Below, in pieces: positions 17,658 to 45,206 of a stretch of 64,000 nucleotides of DNA (the stretch's first letter is position 1; every line of letters begins with the position of its first letter). Position numbers and translations under genes: made by a program. The notes beneath the pieces are model-generated. The model worked only from the letters and a program-made list of their open reading frames with translations. It had not been told where the DNA came from and ran no database searches. This DNA comes from Escherichia coli (GTDB lineage: Bacteria > Pseudomonadota > Gammaproteobacteria > Enterobacterales > Enterobacteriaceae), in the NCBI RefSeq assembly GCF_036507355.1, contig NZ_AP027877.1. One strand, 5' to 3'.

Positions 17658-18832
17658 GCGTAATCATCGTCGGTGGCGGCATGGCGGGCGCGACGCTGGC
17701 GCTGGCTATTTCCCGGTTAAGTCACGGGGCGCTGCCGGTACATTTGATTGAAGCGACCGCGCCAGAGTCACATGCTCATCCGGGCTTTGATGGGCGAGCG
17801 ATTGCGCTGGCGGCGGGTACCTGTCAGCAACTGGCGCGCATTGGCGTCTGGCAATCTCTGGCGGATTGCGCAACCGCCATCACTACCGTGCATGTCAGCG
17901 ATCGTGGTCATGCCGGATTCGTCACCCTCGCCGCAGAAGATTACCAACTGGCGGCGCTGGGGCAGGTTGTCGAATTGCACAATGTCGGGCAACGGCTGTT
18001 TGCATTGCTGCGCAAAGCACCTGGCGTAACGCTGCATTGCCCGGATCGCGTGGCTAACGTTGCCCGTACTCAGAGTCATGTTGAAGTGACGCTGCAGTGT
18101 GGCGAGACGCTGACGGGCCGCGTGCTGGTAGCCGCTGATGGCACCCATTCAGCGTTAGCCACTGTGTGCGGCGTTGACTGGCAGCAGGAGCCTTACGAAC
18201 AACTGGCTGTGATTGCCAACGTTGCGACTTCCGTTGCGCATGAAGGGCGCGCTTTTGAACGCTTTACGCAACATGGCCCGCTGGCGATGTTGCCGATGTC
18301 TGACGGACGCTGTTCGCTGGTCTGGTGTCATCCACTGGAACGGCGCGAAGAGGTGCTGTCGTGGAGCGACGAGAAGTTTTGCCGTGAACTCCAGTCGGCC
18401 TTTGGCTGGCGACTTGGGAAAATTACCCACGCTGGTAAACGCAGTGCTTATCCGCTGGCGTTAACCCACGCCGCCAGATCTATTACCCATCGTACCGTGC
18501 TGGTGGGCAATGCGGCGCAAACCCTGCACCCGATTGCCGGGCAAGGGTTCAACCTCGGTATGCGAGATGTCATGAGTCTTGCGGAAACCCTGACTCAGGC
18601 GCAGGAGCGCGGAGAAGACATGGGTGATTACGGCGTATTGTGTCGTTATCAGCAGCGTCGACAGAGCGATCGCGAAGCAACCATTGGCGTCACGGACAGC
18701 CTTGTACATCTTTTTGCCAACCGTTGGACGCCACTGGTTGTCGGGCGCAACATCGGGCTGATGACGATGGAATTATTCACCCCGGCACGCGATGTGCTGG
18801 CGCAGCGCACCCTCGGTTGGGTGGCGCGTTGA
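17654..18832 (+). CDS. ubiH: 2-octaprenyl-6-methoxyphenol hydroxylase UbiH
   Basis: 392 aa; FAD motif IVGGGMAGATLA; ATGA overlap with pepP stop. Confidence 0.9.
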   Translation: MSVIIVGGGMAGATLALAISRLSHGALPVHLIEATAPESHAHPGFDGRAIALAAGTCQQLARIGVWQSLADCATAITTVHVSDRGHAGFVTLAAEDYQLAALGQVVELHNVGQRLFALLRKAPGVTLHCPDRVANVARTQSHVEVTLQCGETLTGRVLVAADGTHSALATVCGVDWQQEPYEQLAVIANVATSVAHEGRAFERFTQHGPLAMLPMSDGRCSLVWCHPLERREEVLSWSDEKFCRELQSAFGWRLGKITHAGKRSAYPLALTHAARSITHRTVLVGNAAQTLHPIAGQGFNLGMRDVMSLAETLTQAQERGEDMGDYGVLCRYQQRRQSDREATIGVTDSLVHLFANRWTPLVVGRNIGLMTMELFTPARDVLAQRTLGWVAR

Positions 18833-38338: not shown

Positions 38339-38412
38339 GCGGGCGTAGTTCAATGGTAGAACGAGAGCTTCCCAAGCTCTATACGAGGGTTCGATTCCCT
38401 TCGCCCGCTCCA
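38339..38412 (+). tRNA. glyU: tRNA-Gly (anticodon CCC)
   Basis: GCGGGCGTAGTTCAATGGTAGAACGAGAGCTTCCCAAGCTCTATACGAGGGTTCGATTCCCTTCGCCCGCTCCA, 74 nt with encoded CCA. Confidence 0.95.
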
Positions 38413-38546
38413 TGACCTTTCTTAAAGTACTCCAACCTACTGAATCCTAAGGGATACGGCTTTAAGCCTTCCGCTAGTTTTACTCACTGTAACCAACACT
38501 GTAACTAAATTTGTTGAAATAGTGAGCAGACTTAAGATCTCAGTAC

Positions 38547-40178
38547 ATGCTCAACTCAAAAACCTATCTTTATCAGCGCAATGGCGTCTTTTATATCCGC
38601 CTCAGGATGAAGTCCACAGATCGCCTGACCGTTTCACATCCTTCCCATAGCCGTTATAAAATAGCGTCAGTATCACTACGGACTAAGGATAGACGTACAG
38701 CTATGGCTTACTCACGGCAAATCAAGGCAGCACTTAGGGCAATCCATGCAGACAGACCCAACGCCTCCTATGAGGAAATGAGGGAACACCTGAGGGACAT
38801 CGCAGAGTGGGAGTTGTCTACAGGTCGTTCAGACCTCTTCGAGCCAGATATGAGAGATCTATACCGTGACCAGTATGGGGAAGTGGGAGAGAATCTTGTC
38901 CATGCTCTGGCAAGCGAGCCACTGACTATTGACCAGCATCGCTATATTAATGAGGCTCTTAATGTACTCAAGGCCTGCATGAAGCGCATTGAAGCGGGAG
39001 ATAGCCAGCCACTTATAGATTATATAGATGGATTTGATGCTGCTGCTGGGGCTAATGGCCAAGCCTCTGCAACTCTATCTGTTAGTGCTCCCCAAAAAAC
39101 AAGCATTACTGAAGGCAAACACTGCGTAACCGTTGCTTCTCTCTTTGAGCAGTACGAGCAGGAAAACGCCCAGAACTGGAAGCCAGCAACATTACGAGAA
39201 AACAAAGCTTCTCATGCTGCGTTAATCGAAGTTTTTGATTATCTGGGCCTCAATGCTGACGCCAATGTGTTAGCTCGTGCGGATATGCTTAGGGTTCGGG
39301 ATATCCTCCAGCAATTGCCGAAGAATCGTAAGCAGCGTTTCAAAGATGTTCCGTTGGTTGACCTGCTAGGTCGTGAGGATAAAACCGATTGTCTGGATAT
39401 TGTTACCATCAATAATAAATATCTCATTAAGATGGCGGCTGTTTTCAAGTGGGCCGTGCGTAATGACCTGATTAAAAAGAATATGACAGAAGGGCTAGAG
39501 CTTAAGGTTCCCCAGCGTAAAGCCTCTGAGGCGCGTAATGCTTTCTCTACGGAGCAGGTAGGACAACTACTGGCTGCCGCCCAAGTTTACTCACAGAGAC
39601 CTTCTGGTAAGCCGTATCATTATTATGTTACCGCCTTGGCTGCTATCACTGGGGCGAGACTCAATGAAATAGCCCAACTACAGGTCAAAGACGTCAGGAC
39701 CACTGAGGCGGGAACCGTTTATATTCATATCAATGAAGACGATAGTAGTCTACCCGGTAAGAGCATCAAGAACGCTCATAGTGACCGCTGTGTGCCTCTG
39801 GTCGATGGGGCCTATGGTTTTATATTGGCTGACTTTATGAGGTTGGTTGAGACCCGTAGAGGCGCTGATGGTGATGACGCTATGGTGTTCGATGGTCTTC
39901 GCCTCATGAAGAACGGTTACGGTGAGCAGGTGAGTAAATGGTTTAATCGGACGTTGTTGCCTAAAGTCCTCGCAGACCGTAGCGGCTTAGCGTTTCACTC
40001 GTTTAGACATACAGTTGCGACCCAGTTAAAACAACATGGGGTCGAGTTGGCGTATGCACAGGCGATCATGGGGCATAGTTCAGGGTCTATTACTTACGAC
40101 CGTTATGCTAAAGAGGTTGAGGTTGATAGACTGGTCAATGTGATGGCTGATGTTTATAAGGAGGTTGTGGCCCCTTAA
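38547..40178 (+). CDS. Tyrosine recombinase/integrase, unusually large (island 1)
   Basis: 543-aa ORF starting 135 bp after glyU; C-terminal HSFRHTVATQLKQ...AQAIMGHSSGSITYDRYAKE resembles catalytic R..H-x-x-R/Y box. Confidence 0.75.
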   Translation: MLNSKTYLYQRNGVFYIRLRMKSTDRLTVSHPSHSRYKIASVSLRTKDRRTAMAYSRQIKAALRAIHADRPNASYEEMREHLRDIAEWELSTGRSDLFEPDMRDLYRDQYGEVGENLVHALASEPLTIDQHRYINEALNVLKACMKRIEAGDSQPLIDYIDGFDAAAGANGQASATLSVSAPQKTSITEGKHCVTVASLFEQYEQENAQNWKPATLRENKASHAALIEVFDYLGLNADANVLARADMLRVRDILQQLPKNRKQRFKDVPLVDLLGREDKTDCLDIVTINNKYLIKMAAVFKWAVRNDLIKKNMTEGLELKVPQRKASEARNAFSTEQVGQLLAAAQVYSQRPSGKPYHYYVTALAAITGARLNEIAQLQVKDVRTTEAGTVYIHINEDDSSLPGKSIKNAHSDRCVPLVDGAYGFILADFMRLVETRRGADGDDAMVFDGLRLMKNGYGEQVSKWFNRTLLPKVLADRSGLAFHSFRHTVATQLKQHGVELAYAQAIMGHSSGSITYDRYAKEVEVDRLVNVMADVYKEVVAP

Positions 40179-40179
40179 G

Positions 40180-40225
40180 GATGACCATAGGCGATGACCA
40201 TAGGCGATGACCATAGGCGATGACA
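40180..40225 (+). repeat. 3.5 tandem copies of 13-bp unit GATGACCATAGGC
   Basis: Exact tandem copies at 40180, 40193, 40206 plus partial; start 1 bp after integrase stop. Confidence 0.9.
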
Positions 40226-40330
40226 CTTGCTACTATTCCTATGGTCCCCTTTGTGGTCCTATGTGGTCCTGTGTGACCCTTTGTGTGGTCATGTTTTGAC
40301 TCATAGTTTTCACTACTTGTCAAGCATATT

Positions 40331-40353
40331 TAATACGACTCACTATAGGGAGA
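40331..40353 (+). promoter_or_regulatory. Phage T7 RNA polymerase promoter, exact consensus
   Basis: TAATACGACTCACTATAGGGAGA = 23/23 match to T7 -17..+6 consensus; predicted +1 G at 40348; faces the KilA-N gene. Confidence 0.8.
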
Positions 40354-40585
40354 AGGGACACAAAAAGTTTTCTCTCTCTGTCTCTCTCTATGATGACACT
40401 TGCTACTACTTCAGGTAGCTTTAACTCTAACCGTAACTTATCGCATCCTTTCAGGGGCGGGATGACCAATTACAGACACCAAGCGTTCTACTTAAAATGA
40501 ATGCTTCCTGTGTGCTCTGGGTCAGTCGATAAGTGAATAGCCTTAGACATCATATTAATTATGGTCTCTAACCCCTACAGGGGCT

Positions 40586-40729
40586 TAACTTTAAGTATTA
40601 ACTTATAGTCTACTTAAAGACACAATTAAAGATTAACTTAAAGTATTAAATTATAGATTAATTAAAGACCAATTAAAGAGTAACTTTAAGTATTAACTTA
40701 TAGTCTACTTAAAGACACAATTAAAGATT
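40586..40729 (+). repeat. AT-rich iteron-like array: two identical 49-bp direct repeats with a degenerate copy between
   Basis: TAACTTTAAGTATTAACTTATAGTCTACTTAAAGACACAATTAAAGATT at 40586-40634 and 40681-40729. Confidence 0.9.
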
Positions 40730-40922
40730 GACTCTAAGGGAATACCTTAAGAGGTGATGATATTCATAATAATCAATCACCAAACCTATAGGTCTCCTCA
40801 AGGCATTACCCAGAAGCTAACTGTATGGCCCTGTATGGTCCTGTACGCCATTCTTTAGGATGCCATGTAGTTTCGTATGGCCTGATGCCTAGCGTGGCTC
40901 AGAGACCCTCCCAGTAGTAAAT

Positions 40923-40945
40923 CAATACGACTTACTAATAGGAGA
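40923..40945 (+). promoter_or_regulatory. Degenerate T7-like promoter (5 mismatches)
   Basis: CAATACGACTTACTAATAGGAGA retains the AATACGACT core; function uncertain. Confidence 0.3.
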
Positions 40946-41157
40946 CACACTCCGAACCACTCACCACGTGTCTCTCAAAGTTCCACCTCTCGCGCTTCAC
41001 CATACAGTAGCTCCGCACAGCTACGACACAATCATTCATTCAATCTCAAAGTCATTCTGTTTGCATCCTGTTGTCCTGCTGGTCTCCCTTCGCTTGGGGA
41101 CTTTGAGTGGGCCAGTAGGGGGCGGTTTAGTGTGCATATTTAAAAGGTAACCAAGCA

Positions 41158-41721
41158 ATGAACAATAAACATAAACATGCAGGTCATATTATCACTATTG
41201 AAGGCCACAGCTTTAAGTCTAATGAGTCTGGCATGTGGAATCTTACAGAAATATGGAAAATCCTCGGATTACCTAACAATAAGCTACCCTCTCAGTGGCG
41301 CGGCAAGGTAACAAAGAGGCTCACCGACATGCAAAAAATGCACGTCGAGAAGATTGGTATTGAAAGCATAACCTACGCAGACAAACAGGCTACCCTCAAG
41401 TATGCAGGATGGGTCTCTGAAGATTTCGAGGACATGGTCTATGCAGCCTTTGAGGCTATCCTTGAGATGCCTGAAGTTGCCACGGTCGTTGCTAATAAGA
41501 TGGTCGAACTTGGCTATCACGCTGAAGCTGAGCTATTGGAACGTCATAAGGACGACTATAGAGAAGCTATGCAGACCCTTAAAAAGATTGGTAAACGTGT
41601 TGACGGCAGGAAGCCTGAGCGCATCTACAAGGCCGTACTTAACGGTAATCTGACGAAATTTCAAGGGTTATCCATGATTTCTCGCAGCAGTGTCTGGTAC
41701 GCCCGAACAGTGAATCTATGA
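41158..41721 (+). CDS. KilA-N-like DNA-binding domain protein (island 1)
   Basis: 187-aa ORF; N-terminal IITIEGHSFKSNESGMWNLTEIWKILG ... ATLKYAGWVSEDFEDMV resembles KilA-N/anti-repressor N-domain by eye. Confidence 0.5.
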   Translation: MNNKHKHAGHIITIEGHSFKSNESGMWNLTEIWKILGLPNNKLPSQWRGKVTKRLTDMQKMHVEKIGIESITYADKQATLKYAGWVSEDFEDMVYAAFEAILEMPEVATVVANKMVELGYHAEAELLERHKDDYREAMQTLKKIGKRVDGRKPERIYKAVLNGNLTKFQGLSMISRSSVWYARTVNL

Positions 41722-41844
41722 TGGCTATCGATCACGATAGATGCCAGCGATCAATTTCAGGTTACCGATCGAAACAAACGATCAGCACGATGGTTGCAAT
41801 CGGATATCATATTGACACTTGTCTGACATCCTGAAGGTATCAAT

Positions 41845-42318
41845 ATGTTTGGGCTTTTTAAGAAAAAGGCAAAAGCGGAAAGGTGTTATGATGTAACACG
41901 CATTCAATACGAGCTGGTTGTAATGTCATCTAAGCTGATAAAAAAACAGACCGATATGTTCAAAGTAATAAAAGGGGAGCGAGAGGAGGCTTTAGGAGAC
42001 CCTTTATTATCAGCAGGGTATATAACGCCATGGGTCATTGGATATTGCACTGGTCTCCTGGATGCAGTGACTCAGACGGAGGCTAACAGGATGGCATTTA
42101 CATCAGAAATGCTTGGGCTTCTTTTTGCTGCAGTTTTCGGTGATGATAAGTCTCTTGAGGCCATGGGAACTTATATAGCCTGTAACGAAGCCTCCTCACC
42201 AGACCATGGATTTCATGTTACGTATGAGCTTTATATGTCTGGTCTAGCGAAAGCGTTTAATGAGGTATGTGAGGATAAACCTGCGATAGGACTTCTGAAC
42301 TATTTAATGCAGGATTGA
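41845..42318 (+). CDS. Hypothetical protein (island 1)
   Basis: 157-aa ORF downstream of KilA-N gene; no family recognised. Confidence 0.45.
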   Translation: MFGLFKKKAKAERCYDVTRIQYELVVMSSKLIKKQTDMFKVIKGEREEALGDPLLSAGYITPWVIGYCTGLLDAVTQTEANRMAFTSEMLGLLFAAVFGDDKSLEAMGTYIACNEASSPDHGFHVTYELYMSGLAKAFNEVCEDKPAIGLLNYLMQD

Positions 42319-42584
42319 AAATTTCCCACAAAAATCTCAGTGCCTATCTAACAGTAATAACCCTGCAACATTCCCCCGTATACCTCCAGAAGTTATCCAG
42401 AAGCCGAAGTAGGTATCCTGTCATGTATTTGAATCATCAAAGTTGTTCGTTCTATTCCTCTTTAGGGAATATTACAGCCCTACAGCCTTGACCAGAGATC
42501 ACTTGATGTGTAACCATAACTGTAACCAAAAGGATTCATCATCCTTTAAGAAACAATTGGTTAGTGAGTGATTGTCTTCGATAC

Positions 42585-42607
42585 TTCGATTCCCTTCGCC
42601 CGCTCCA
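42585..42607 (+). repeat. Direct repeat of glyU 3' end (att site duplication between island 1 and island 2)
   Basis: TTCGATTCCCTTCGCCCGCTCCA identical to 38390-38412. Confidence 0.9.
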
Positions 42608-42771
42608 AACTCAAGTCTCCTGAAGTCTACCAAACTCAATTTTTCCTTGATAAATCAGCAGTTATAGCTTTCTATTAGTCTATTGAACTCAATTGTACTC
42701 CCCCAGGGTCAAGCTCAATGTGGGGGTATGGATGGGGGTATAATTGTACCCCCTGCTGAGAGGTACCCCCA

Positions 42772-43998
42772 ATGAAGCTGACTGCTCGTCAGGTTGAAAC
42801 TGCGAAACCCAAAGAGAAGCCCTACAAACTGGCCGATGGTGGTGGGCTTTACCTGCTGGTTAATCCCAACGGTAAAAGATACTGGCGTCTCAAATACCGT
42901 TCGTTAGGTAAAGAGAAGCTGCTCGCTATTGGCGTTTATCCCGATGTTTCTTTAGCTGAGGCCCGAAGTAAGCGTGAGGATGCTAAAAGAACATTAGCGG
43001 CTGGCAACGATCCCTCTCTTGAACGAAAAATTGAGAAACTTAGTCGTCAACAAGACGCTGAAAACTCGTTTGAGGCTATCACACGGGAGTGGTATCAGCG
43101 TCGCTATGACCGCTGGTCTGTCTCCTACCGCGAAGAAATGCTGAGAACCTTTGAGAAAGATGTATTTCCTTATATCGGTCACAGGCCAATCAAAGATATC
43201 AAGCCGATGGAGTTGCTTGCAGTTCTTTCAAAGATAGAAGCACGAGGGGCAACAGAGAAAGTCCGCAAGGTTCGTCAGCGTTGTGGAGAGGTCTGGAAGT
43301 ATGCCGTTGTGACTGGGAGGGCCGAGTACAATCCAGCACCTGATCTAGCCAGCGCCGTGAGTCCTCATGAGAAAGAGCACTATGCTTTTTTAACCCAGGA
43401 TGAATTGCCTGAGTTTCTTCGGACTCTGAACGCCTATGCCGGTAGTGTGCTTGTTAAGATTGCGATGCAATTGCTCATTTTAACAGGAGTAAGGCCAGGG
43501 GAGTTGAGGCAAGCGGAGTGGCAGGAGTTTGATTTTGAGAAAAAGGTTTGGAATGTACCAGCGGAACGTATGAAAATGCGCCGCCCTCATCTTGTTCCAT
43601 TATCAAGCCAGGCAATTGACCTGCTTAATCAACTTAAACCCATAACGGGAGCAGGAGCGTTATTATTCCCAGGACGTAATAATCCTAAGAAACCGATGAG
43701 CGATATGGCATTGACTGTGTTGGTCAGGCGTATCGGCTATGCCGGGCGCGTTACAGGGCATGGATTCCGCCACACGATGAGTACCATTTTGCATGAGCAG
43801 GGATTCAACTCGGCCTGGATTGAGTTACAGCTGGCTCACGTCGATAAGAACTCAATTCGTGGGACGTATAACCATGCTCAATATTTGGAAGGTCGGCGGG
43901 AGATGATGCAGTGGTATGGAGATTTCATCGGTCAAGCAGGCAAATCCGGATCATCGCTAGCTTATGCAGCTATTAGCTTGACTGCTGAATTAGAGTGA
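42772..43998 (+). CDS. P4-type tyrosine integrase (island 2)
   Basis: 408 aa; N-terminal arm-binding MKLTARQVETAKPKEKPYKLADGGGLYLLVNPNGKRYWRLKYR; C-terminal GHGFRHTMSTIL...LAHVD...YNHAQY. Confidence 0.9.
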   Translation: MKLTARQVETAKPKEKPYKLADGGGLYLLVNPNGKRYWRLKYRSLGKEKLLAIGVYPDVSLAEARSKREDAKRTLAAGNDPSLERKIEKLSRQQDAENSFEAITREWYQRRYDRWSVSYREEMLRTFEKDVFPYIGHRPIKDIKPMELLAVLSKIEARGATEKVRKVRQRCGEVWKYAVVTGRAEYNPAPDLASAVSPHEKEHYAFLTQDELPEFLRTLNAYAGSVLVKIAMQLLILTGVRPGELRQAEWQEFDFEKKVWNVPAERMKMRRPHLVPLSSQAIDLLNQLKPITGAGALLFPGRNNPKKPMSDMALTVLVRRIGYAGRVTGHGFRHTMSTILHEQGFNSAWIELQLAHVDKNSIRGTYNHAQYLEGRREMMQWYGDFIGQAGKSGSSLAYAAISLTAELE

Positions 43999-44056: not shown

Positions 44057-44195
44057 GGAGTTAATACTTTTTGCAATTTTTTTTTTCGTGCCGTTGGATG
44101 TAAAGATCTGTGGGGGTTAGGGAAGAAAATCATGCTATGTTAGTCTTTGAGGAGTGAGTCAAAATGTTATAACTTTTTCAAAGAGGCGTTACATC

Positions 44196-45131
44196 GTGAA
44201 AGTCGTTTTTAATGTTAATGGTAAAAAAGTTCCGCTCAAATCTCTGCAATATATAAGTAAAGCAAATCAACTCGAAGTTATGCGGAATTGGTTTTTTGAG
44301 AATTTTGAAGATCCCGCGAACTCTTGCCCGTATGAATCCCGTGAAGGCGGGTATGCTTACATTTATGGGGGCCCATACGAAGCAAGTGAAGAGTTGCAAG
44401 CGATGTTTGAAGGACACGTGAAATTTGATTATATCCAAGAATTAGTCAATGAATTACAAGAACAGTGCTATGAATGGTCTGGTAATTCAAATAATATTAA
44501 TGATTGGTACGATGAAGACTTGTATGATGCTGTTACATCTTCTGAACATCCTTTTTCTAAGTTCGTTGAAAGCATTGATGGAATAAAATTGCTGTCTAAA
44601 GGCGAATTTAAAGATAAACAAAAAGATCATCTGCTTAGCATCCTATATATTAATGTCATTACAGCCCTGGAAACACTTTATGTTGAGTTATTTATTAACT
44701 CTATAGATAAAAACGACTCATATCTTGCTGACTTTATAGAAAAAGGTAAGACGGAATTTAAGGTAAATAAAGGAATATTGGCTTTGCCATTCAAAGGAGA
44801 AACTATTGAAAACATGAGGGCGCAATTAATTAAGGTAATTAAAGAGCATTTGATTAGTGCAAGTTGGCATAGTACAAACAAAGTTGTAGGACGTTATAAA
44901 GCTACATTTGATATAAAAGTACATAAAGAGTGGCCAATAGATGTGATCGAAATAGCAACTCAAAAGCGTAATCATTTAGTCCATCGTGGCGGGAAAGATA
45001 AAGAAGGTAATTCGGTAGTGATTACTGAACAGGATTTAGAAATGTTGCTGGATCACGCACAATCTCTTGGAGAAAAATTGTTTGATAGCCTTGAGGTGGC
45101 ATTACAGAAAAAAGATGAGAATGAATTTTGA
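44196..45131 (+). CDS. Hypothetical protein with HEPN-like Rx4H motif (possible abortive-infection RNase)
   Basis: ORF 44154-45131; GTG 44196 preferred (AAGAGG 9 nt upstream); motif KRNHLVHRGG near C-terminus. Confidence 0.4.
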   Translation: MKVVFNVNGKKVPLKSLQYISKANQLEVMRNWFFENFEDPANSCPYESREGGYAYIYGGPYEASEELQAMFEGHVKFDYIQELVNELQEQCYEWSGNSNNINDWYDEDLYDAVTSSEHPFSKFVESIDGIKLLSKGEFKDKQKDHLLSILYINVITALETLYVELFINSIDKNDSYLADFIEKGKTEFKVNKGILALPFKGETIENMRAQLIKVIKEHLISASWHSTNKVVGRYKATFDIKVHKEWPIDVIEIATQKRNHLVHRGGKDKEGNSVVITEQDLEMLLDHAQSLGEKLFDSLEVALQKKDENEF

Positions 45132-45182
45132 GTCTCGGGGTAGGTTGATAGTGCTACCGATAACGAGCAAGCAAATGATACT

Positions 45183-45203
45183 CGGCAGGCAGTGCCTGCC
45201 GGA
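45183..45203. terminator. Bidirectional terminator hairpin between convergent genes
   Basis: cggcaggcagtgcctgccgg palindrome between stops at 45131 and 45207. Confidence 0.5.
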
Positions 45204-45206
45204 GGA

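Follow-up and report, generated by a model that had tools for sequence, protein, structure and literature searches.

The GGGGGTA(Y) copies directly upstream of int2 in the window (the whole stretch of DNA that was analysed, 64 kb from Escherichia coli) are best read, with a probability of roughly 85% and on comparative sequence evidence, as arm-type sites to which Int2 binds through its N-terminal DUF4102/Arm-DNA-bind_3 domain, in a P4-type att arm. The sequence-only reading had pointed to GGGGGTA direct and inverted repeats just 5' of a P4-type integrase gene and had taken them for an operator or arm-type site array. The sequence and a pattern search confirm the repeats, and the functional proposal is supported by the location of the copies in an att arm, their positional homology with phage P4, their recurrence on the far arm and the covariation of their motif with the arm-binding domain. 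From these observations we infer that Int2 binds the copies.

Pattern searching places TGGGGGTA at 42721-42728 and 42733-42740, on the two direct-repeat starts originally given. The corresponding putative arm-type sites, direct copies 1 and 2, both read TGGGGGTAT on the plus strand, at 42721-42729 (+115 to +121 from the core end) and 42733-42741 (+127 to +133). Two inverted copies follow on the minus strand, GTACCCCC at 42746-42753 (+140 to +146 from the core) and GTACCCCCA at 42763-42771 (+157 to +163); the latter sits between a Shine-Dalgarno-like GAGAGG and the int2 ATG at 42772. An exact-pattern search finds the second occurrence of GTACCCCC at 42763-42770, so that the complement copy assigned to 42763 was correctly placed while the one assigned to 42745 actually begins one base later. 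A degenerate fifth copy, GTACTCCCCCA, carries one extra T and lies on the minus strand at 42695-42705, +88 from the core. This variant had been noticed as well, but the 42705 quoted for it is its last base and not its start, and its distance of 77 bp from the ATG contradicts the statement that all copies fall within 70 bp of the start codon. Copies 2 and 3 together make a near-perfect 20-bp palindrome, GGGGGTATAATTGTACCCCC, at 42734-42753, with the hexamer TATAAT (42739-42744) at its centre.

The number of GGGGGTA matches on both strands of the window is unremarkable, with 5 observed against 3.4 expected. Their clustering is another matter, as 4 of the 5 fall inside 49 bp just 5' of int2. Across 300 shuffles that kept dinucleotide frequencies, the densest 60-bp stretch held one copy in 295 cases, two in 1 and none in 4, and a Poisson estimate for the observed clustering is ∼3e-8.

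The glyU attachment site and its counterpart in phage P4

The chromosomal integration target is glyU, a tRNA-Gly(CCC) gene found by ARAGORN at 38339-38412 on the plus strand, of which the 3' 23 nt form the att core. These last 23 nt recur exactly at 42585-42607 (plus strand, 0 expected by chance), from which it follows that two islands are inserted in tandem. Island 1 spans 38413-42584 and encodes a 543-aa tyrosine integrase. Island 2 begins at 42585 with the core copy that marks the island 1/island 2 junction, which is thus the attL core of island 2, and int2 follows 165 bp further on. The repeat array occupies the int-proximal arm, with sites from +88 to +163 relative to the tRNA-derived core. 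Because tRNA and int share the same orientation and the 164-nt spacer from core to ATG consists entirely of att arm, the int2 promoter necessarily lies inside attL.

The int2 gene (42772-43998, plus strand) encodes a 408-aa P4-type tyrosine integrase with three Pfam domains, Arm-DNA-bind_3 (DUF4102, PF13356, E = 3e-28), Phage_int_M (PF22022) and Phage_integrase (PF00589). Two solved arm-binding domains, 3JU0 and 3JTZ from the integrases of the HAI7 and HPI islands, match its N-terminus. Int2 belongs to the same integrase family as P4 Int, to which it is 45% identical, and in both elements the core is the 3' end of a tRNA gene. The GenBank record of P4 (NC_001609) annotates six "attP arm sequence repeat" features, and read from the sequence the P4 arm motif is GGGGGCA(T/C) where that of island 2 is GGGGGTA.

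When offsets are counted from the ...CCA end of the core, direct copy 1 stands at +115 to +121 in both elements (P4 repeat 3954-3965) and direct copy 2 at +127 to +133 in both (P4 repeat 3942-3953). The ATG-adjacent inverted copy occupies +157 to +163 in island 2 and +155 to +161 in P4 (3915-3926, overlapping the int start), and the int ATG falls at +165 and +164, respectively. On the far arm, at about 55-75 bp from the core, the two copies of the pair start 95 and 83 bp ahead of the core end in island 2 and 94 and 82 bp ahead of it in P4. All five sites and the ATG thus have offsets that are equal or at most 2 bp apart. The likeness extends to the Vis-family RDF of P4, which is matched by an AlpA/Vis-family gene in the intact island. 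Work on the P4 attP arm repeats and the Pint region is reportedly to be found in Pierson & Kahn 1987 and Piazzolla et al. 2006.

The two elements also differ. P4 targets a tRNA-Leu gene whereas island 2 uses tRNA-Gly(CCC); the copies at 42746-42753 and 42695-42705 are extra in island 2, P4 being without both; and the P4 promoter, TTGAAA-18-CATAAT, is degraded in island 2, which instead has a perfect TATAAT one repeat (12 bp) downstream. Furthermore, island 2 is a CP4-type element with arsenic-resistance and defence-like cargo and not a P2 satellite. Just 3' of int2 the cargo (44154-48173) looks defence-like and includes a 325-aa protein with a weak HEPN/RES N-terminal match, a DUF2326 protein and genes of an ABC-three-component system; an arsRDABC operon comes next.

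The far arm can be seen in intact copies. E. coli NZ_OZ197100.1 has an int2 region of 100% identity immediately next to glyU, at the head of a CP4-type island that carries ars, DUF2326/ABC-three-component system, antirestriction, RadC and YeeU/CbtA genes together with an AlpA-family gene whose product belongs to the Pfam family of P4 Vis. The right end of this island holds a 21/23 copy of the core (attR). Two GGGGGTA matches, and no more, occur in that 24 kb; they form the tandem pair cTTTGGGGGTATcTTTGGGGGTATaa, which lies 55-73 bp before this core. The tandem TTTGGGGGTAT pair is present at this distance in both NZ_OZ197100.1 and NZ_CP116405.1, and in the 92%-identical copy of this end from the other strain it is unchanged while the flanks have diverged. 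When the two island ends are joined to reconstruct attP, the GGGGGTA motif stands on both sides of the core, which is the signature of arm-type integrase sites. As a separate observation, 2 of the 23 positions in the island 2 attR core do not match the tRNA (TTCTAATCCC...), and these mismatches limit the crossover segment to the last 17 nt.

Conservation of the arm and covariation with the integrase N-terminal domain

Scanning one genome from each species yielded 80 loci with integrases 51-98% identical to Int2. We applied a motif-agnostic layout test that asks for a 7-mer repeated exactly in direct orientation at a distance of 11-13 bp, with its reverse complement nearer the ATG. This layout is present in 51 of 83 related loci (61%), and among the controls it turned up in 12 of the 8300 shuffles and in 7 of the 3438 other genomic windows (0.1-0.2%). 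When arms of distant lineages are aligned, their sequence is scrambled apart from both direct copies, the inverted copy next to the ATG and some short patches; three copies are invariant among relatives whose surrounding arm is not. In most lineages one inverted copy lies right against the start codon. The remaining two copies behave differently: the one at 42746-42753 is lineage-specific and in relatives of 90-94% identity has decayed to GTACCCCA or suffered a 1-nt deletion, and at locus L029 it is present with the cognate motif. At the position of 42695-42705 a Citrobacter relative (L006) has a perfect GTACCCCC. These two copies, which are not conserved beyond the closest relatives, may be non-functional.

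The arm motif itself varies by lineage, with GGGGGTA, AGGGGTA, GGGGGCA, TGTGTATAG, TTGTATAG and ACGGTAT all represented. Integrases with leucine at position 29 (GGGLYL-L-V) pair with GGGGGTA at 39 loci and those with glutamate there (GGGLYL-E-V, including P4) with GGGGGCA at 8 loci, in each case with no exceptions; the loci (83 in all) are phylogenetically related, and such counts overstate the number of independent events. Integrases of the DGNGLS...KGWR type pair with TGTATAG-type motifs. Within residues 1-90 just four positions split the GGGGGTA and GGGGGCA classes perfectly, namely L29/E, N or K31/A, S or T, L or V50/R and I, L or V53/F. In Int2 these residues are encoded between 42856 and 42933 of the window. 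We regard residues 29, 31, 50 and 53 as candidate determinants of arm-site base preference, a comparative assignment that shared ancestry could confound, and residue 29 would be expected to face the DNA.

The motif does not follow the tRNA target, as tRNA-Gly(CCC) hosts GGGGGTA-class and TGTGTATAG-class integrases alike. Whether the target is Gly, Ser, SeC, one of two Arg, Thr or Leu, the distance from tRNA to ATG keeps to about 162-175 nt, with a mode of 164. The attP geometry, with the direct pair at +115/+127, the inverted copy at the ATG and ∼164 bp from core to ATG, is otherwise fixed across at least seven tRNA targets. Covariation of motif and domain is, on these alignments, the pattern expected of sites that are read by the integrase arm-binding domain.

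A search of the literature on glyU islands and DUF4102 specificity found nothing specific to the GGGGGTA motif. It is possible, if rather doubtful, that a simple recognition rule holds for DUF4102, in which one or two of the four positions set the choice between GGGGGTA and GGGGGCA on a fixed attP geometry while the int promoter has slid by exactly one 12-bp repeat and still lies under the sites. If true, arm specificity across this large integrase family would be predictable and re-programmable. The motif-residue link is in any case a small hypothesis on how the arm-binding domain reads DNA, and the conserved spacing together with lineage-specific motifs provides a ready rule for finding the arm sites of P4-type integrases and the ends of their islands.

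The int2 promoter and alternative functions of the array

TATAAT at 42739-42744 (plus strand), inside the palindrome of copies 2 and 3, is the candidate -10 element of the int2 promoter. It is overlapped by both copies, with the 3' end of copy 2 supplying its first three bases. The -35 hexamer paired with it is poor (TCAATG, 2 of 6 matches). A scan of 42300-43000 for consensus promoters and terminators returned no full sigma-70 promoter and no terminator, which argues that the palindrome is not an intrinsic terminator and that the promoter is non-canonical. The int2 promoter would then be weak or factor-dependent, and with no full match and so poor a -35 its assignment in this lineage is a weak one.

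For P4 and the relatives from Xenorhabdus, Tatumella, Rahnella and Gilliamella, the best candidate for a sigma-70 promoter falls at one and the same place with scores of 9-11 out of 12. An 18-bp spacer separates its TTGAAA or TTGACA, at about -69, from a -10 at about -45 that the first direct repeat forms with its 3' end. In the island 2 lineage the promoter at this position is degraded and the second repeat forms a perfect TATAAT 12 bp downstream. Judging from these alignments, the int promoter has apparently moved by one repeat in the island 2 lineage.

Lambda attP (P1, P2 and P'1-3) follows the same arm-site principle with a different site sequence and geometry, and lambda int is not transcribed from within attL. 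The lambda integrase is heterobivalent, with an N-terminal domain for the repeated arm sites that flank the core on either side (PMC2951348), and the DUF4102 fold has an extra strand and helix relative to that domain (PMC8138268). At the level of layout island 2 resembles KplE1 (CPS-53; Panis et al. 2010, PMC2951348), which has the order tRNA-attL-int and an int promoter inside attL, although the P' arm sites of KplE1 share TAAA, unlike the GGGGGTA of island 2. IntS-type phage integrases are the closest phage relatives of Int2, yet they are only about 46-50% identical to it.

Precedents for autoregulation come from several of these systems. P4 Int represses Pint through direct DNA binding at the positions considered here, and P4 Vis also lowers Int expression (PMC2951348). 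IntS and TorI of KplE1 repress PintS likewise, with an arm-type site overlapping the -10, and int autoregulation has been predicted for tRNA-int layouts generally, in what is called the 'STI' configuration (PMC2951348). In PAI I536 of uropathogenic E. coli, which resembles island 2 in having a P4/CP4-type island integrase, IntI represses its own promoter (PMC7286903). The overlap of the array with the candidate int2 promoter, its sole strong -10 included, taken together with the P4, KplE1 and PAI I536 precedents, suggests that the array is probably an autorepression operator of int2.

PAI I536 differs in having an IHF site in the intI upstream region, as opposed to the int2 arm, which holds no exact IHF consensus. 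The IHF consensus WATCARNNNNTTR has no exact match in either the island attP or the P4 attP. An A/T-rich patch, GATAAATCAGCAGTT, at 42649-42663 aligns between lineages including P4. A second set of short repeats is also present in the int-proximal arm, with AACTCAA at 42609, 42634 and 42687 and AGCTCAA at 42712. The AACTCAA repeats and the A/T-rich patch are candidate RDF or IHF sites.

If the copies are Int2 arm sites, the N-terminal domains of Int2 would bind the near-arm sites and the matching far-arm pair of an intact element while its C-terminal domains bind the tRNA-derived core. Int2 would thereby bridge arms and core into an intasome able both to insert the island at glyU and to excise it, and an AlpA/Vis-type protein would decide in which direction recombination runs. 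Since the sites flank or overlap the int2 -10 and the RBS-ATG region, bound Int2 would also block RNA polymerase and so repress int2.

The AlpA-family protein of the intact island, a member of the P4 Vis Pfam family, raises the thought that the repeats are instead sites for an AlpA/Vis-family RDF, where binding would above all bend attL for excision and keep int repressed. We consider this very improbable, as RDF sites normally occupy one arm only whereas the GGGGGTA motif is on both, and the motif class follows residues in the integrase N-terminus. In P4 the homologous repeats bear the annotation of attP arm repeats and are where P4 Int reportedly binds (PMC2951348); other short repeats of the arm (AACTCAA three times, GTC patches) make better RDF/IHF candidates. 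Action at the RNA level is also improbable as the main function. Here the inverted copies would pair into a nested hairpin in a read-through transcript, bury the RBS-AUG stretch and block int2 translation or recruit an RNA-binding regulator such as Vis. RNA from 42715-42790 does fold to -32.5 kcal/mol (z = -2.9), an inverted copy adjoins the start codon in most lineages and P4 Vis has been reported to bind int mRNA (PMC2951348). However, the sole strong -10 lies inside the loop, and a transcript that starts ∼7 nt downstream lacks the 5' halves and is unstructured (z = -0.35). Nor can the far-arm copies belong to this RNA. In Xenorhabdus the direct copies read AGGGGTA while the inverted copy is still TACCCCC with no compensating change, and any inverted pair of protein sites gives equal complementarity. 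At most, the hairpin would be a secondary layer on read-through transcripts.

Two of the five copies are poorly conserved and the island is truncated in the window, as might be expected if the array were a relic without function or a G-rich, low-complexity patch that arose by chance. This explanation has next to no probability in our estimation, given clustering far beyond that of shuffles, three copies that are invariant amid scrambled arms and a layout found in 61% of related loci against 0.1-0.2% of controls. A chance or low-complexity origin was rejected on the shuffle statistics and the conservation.

Read as Int2 arm sites, the array would be an ordinary and well-understood part of a mobile-island attachment site and integrase promoter, and P4-type arm sites that double as an int operator are already known. 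The new points are modest: an attP geometry kept at base level at 45% integrase identity, a single-base motif switch tied to a few N-domain residues and an apparent promoter shift of one repeat. They leave the current understanding of tyrosine-integrase biology unchanged. For annotation, the array fixes the left boundary and the att architecture of a CP4/P4-type island inserted at glyU.

Truncation of island 2 and the neighbouring island 1

In this genome similarity to the intact island stops at 54584, inside arsH. An IS3-family element with 38-bp imperfect inverted repeats and an rve transposase follows at 54587-55815, and beyond it are ETT2-like T3SS regulator and chaperone genes. A search of the window for a third att core, allowing up to 3 mismatches in 16 nt, found none, which is explained by the IS3-linked truncation of island 2. 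Within the window island 2 is without an AlpA/Vis-type (RDF) gene, far-arm sites and attR. With the island truncated in this way, the recombination role described above cannot operate as such in this genome and is probably no longer usable; the array can here at most regulate int2, and island 2 is probably fixed in place. Despite the truncation, int2 still stands behind its own regulatory and recombination sites.

Island 1 has a 22-bp repeat of its own, TGTAACCAnnACTGTAACnAAA, at both ends (38488-38509 and 42509-42530). The left copy lies 76-97 bp beyond the left core of island 1 and the right copy 55-76 bp short of its right core; both are probably arm-type sites of the 543-aa integrase. This repeat serves as an internal control, in that every island brings its own arm motif.

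Island 1 also contains, at 40331-40353 on the plus strand, an exact match to the phage T7 class III promoter consensus TAATACGACTCACTATAGGGAGA, with 0 expected by chance, and a second, degenerate T7-type copy at 40924-40945. A sibling island in NZ_OZ197100.1 has two T7 promoter copies with 1 mismatch each, located 3' of the integrase (18172-18194 and 18281-18303 of L002, minus strand). No DNA match to the cargo of the mini-island was found in the phage collection, and a literature search found no description of a T7-promoter-bearing glyU mini-island. This 4-kb glyU mini-island family looks to be geared to a T7-type RNA polymerase; it could be a satellite of T7-like phages or else a defence cassette that T7 triggers. 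Directly 3' of the island 1 integrase stop are iteron-like tandem repeats at 40180-40282 and 40586-40738, with units of GATGACCATAGGC (three times), CTnTGTGGTCC (three times) and 47-48 bp (three times), which may be a replication origin.

The order of the islands at glyU is reversed between genomes, being tRNA-island 1-island 2 in the window and tRNA-island 2-island-1-type in NZ_OZ197100.1 (L001/L002). These opposite orders point to repeated independent tandem insertion at one tRNA gene.
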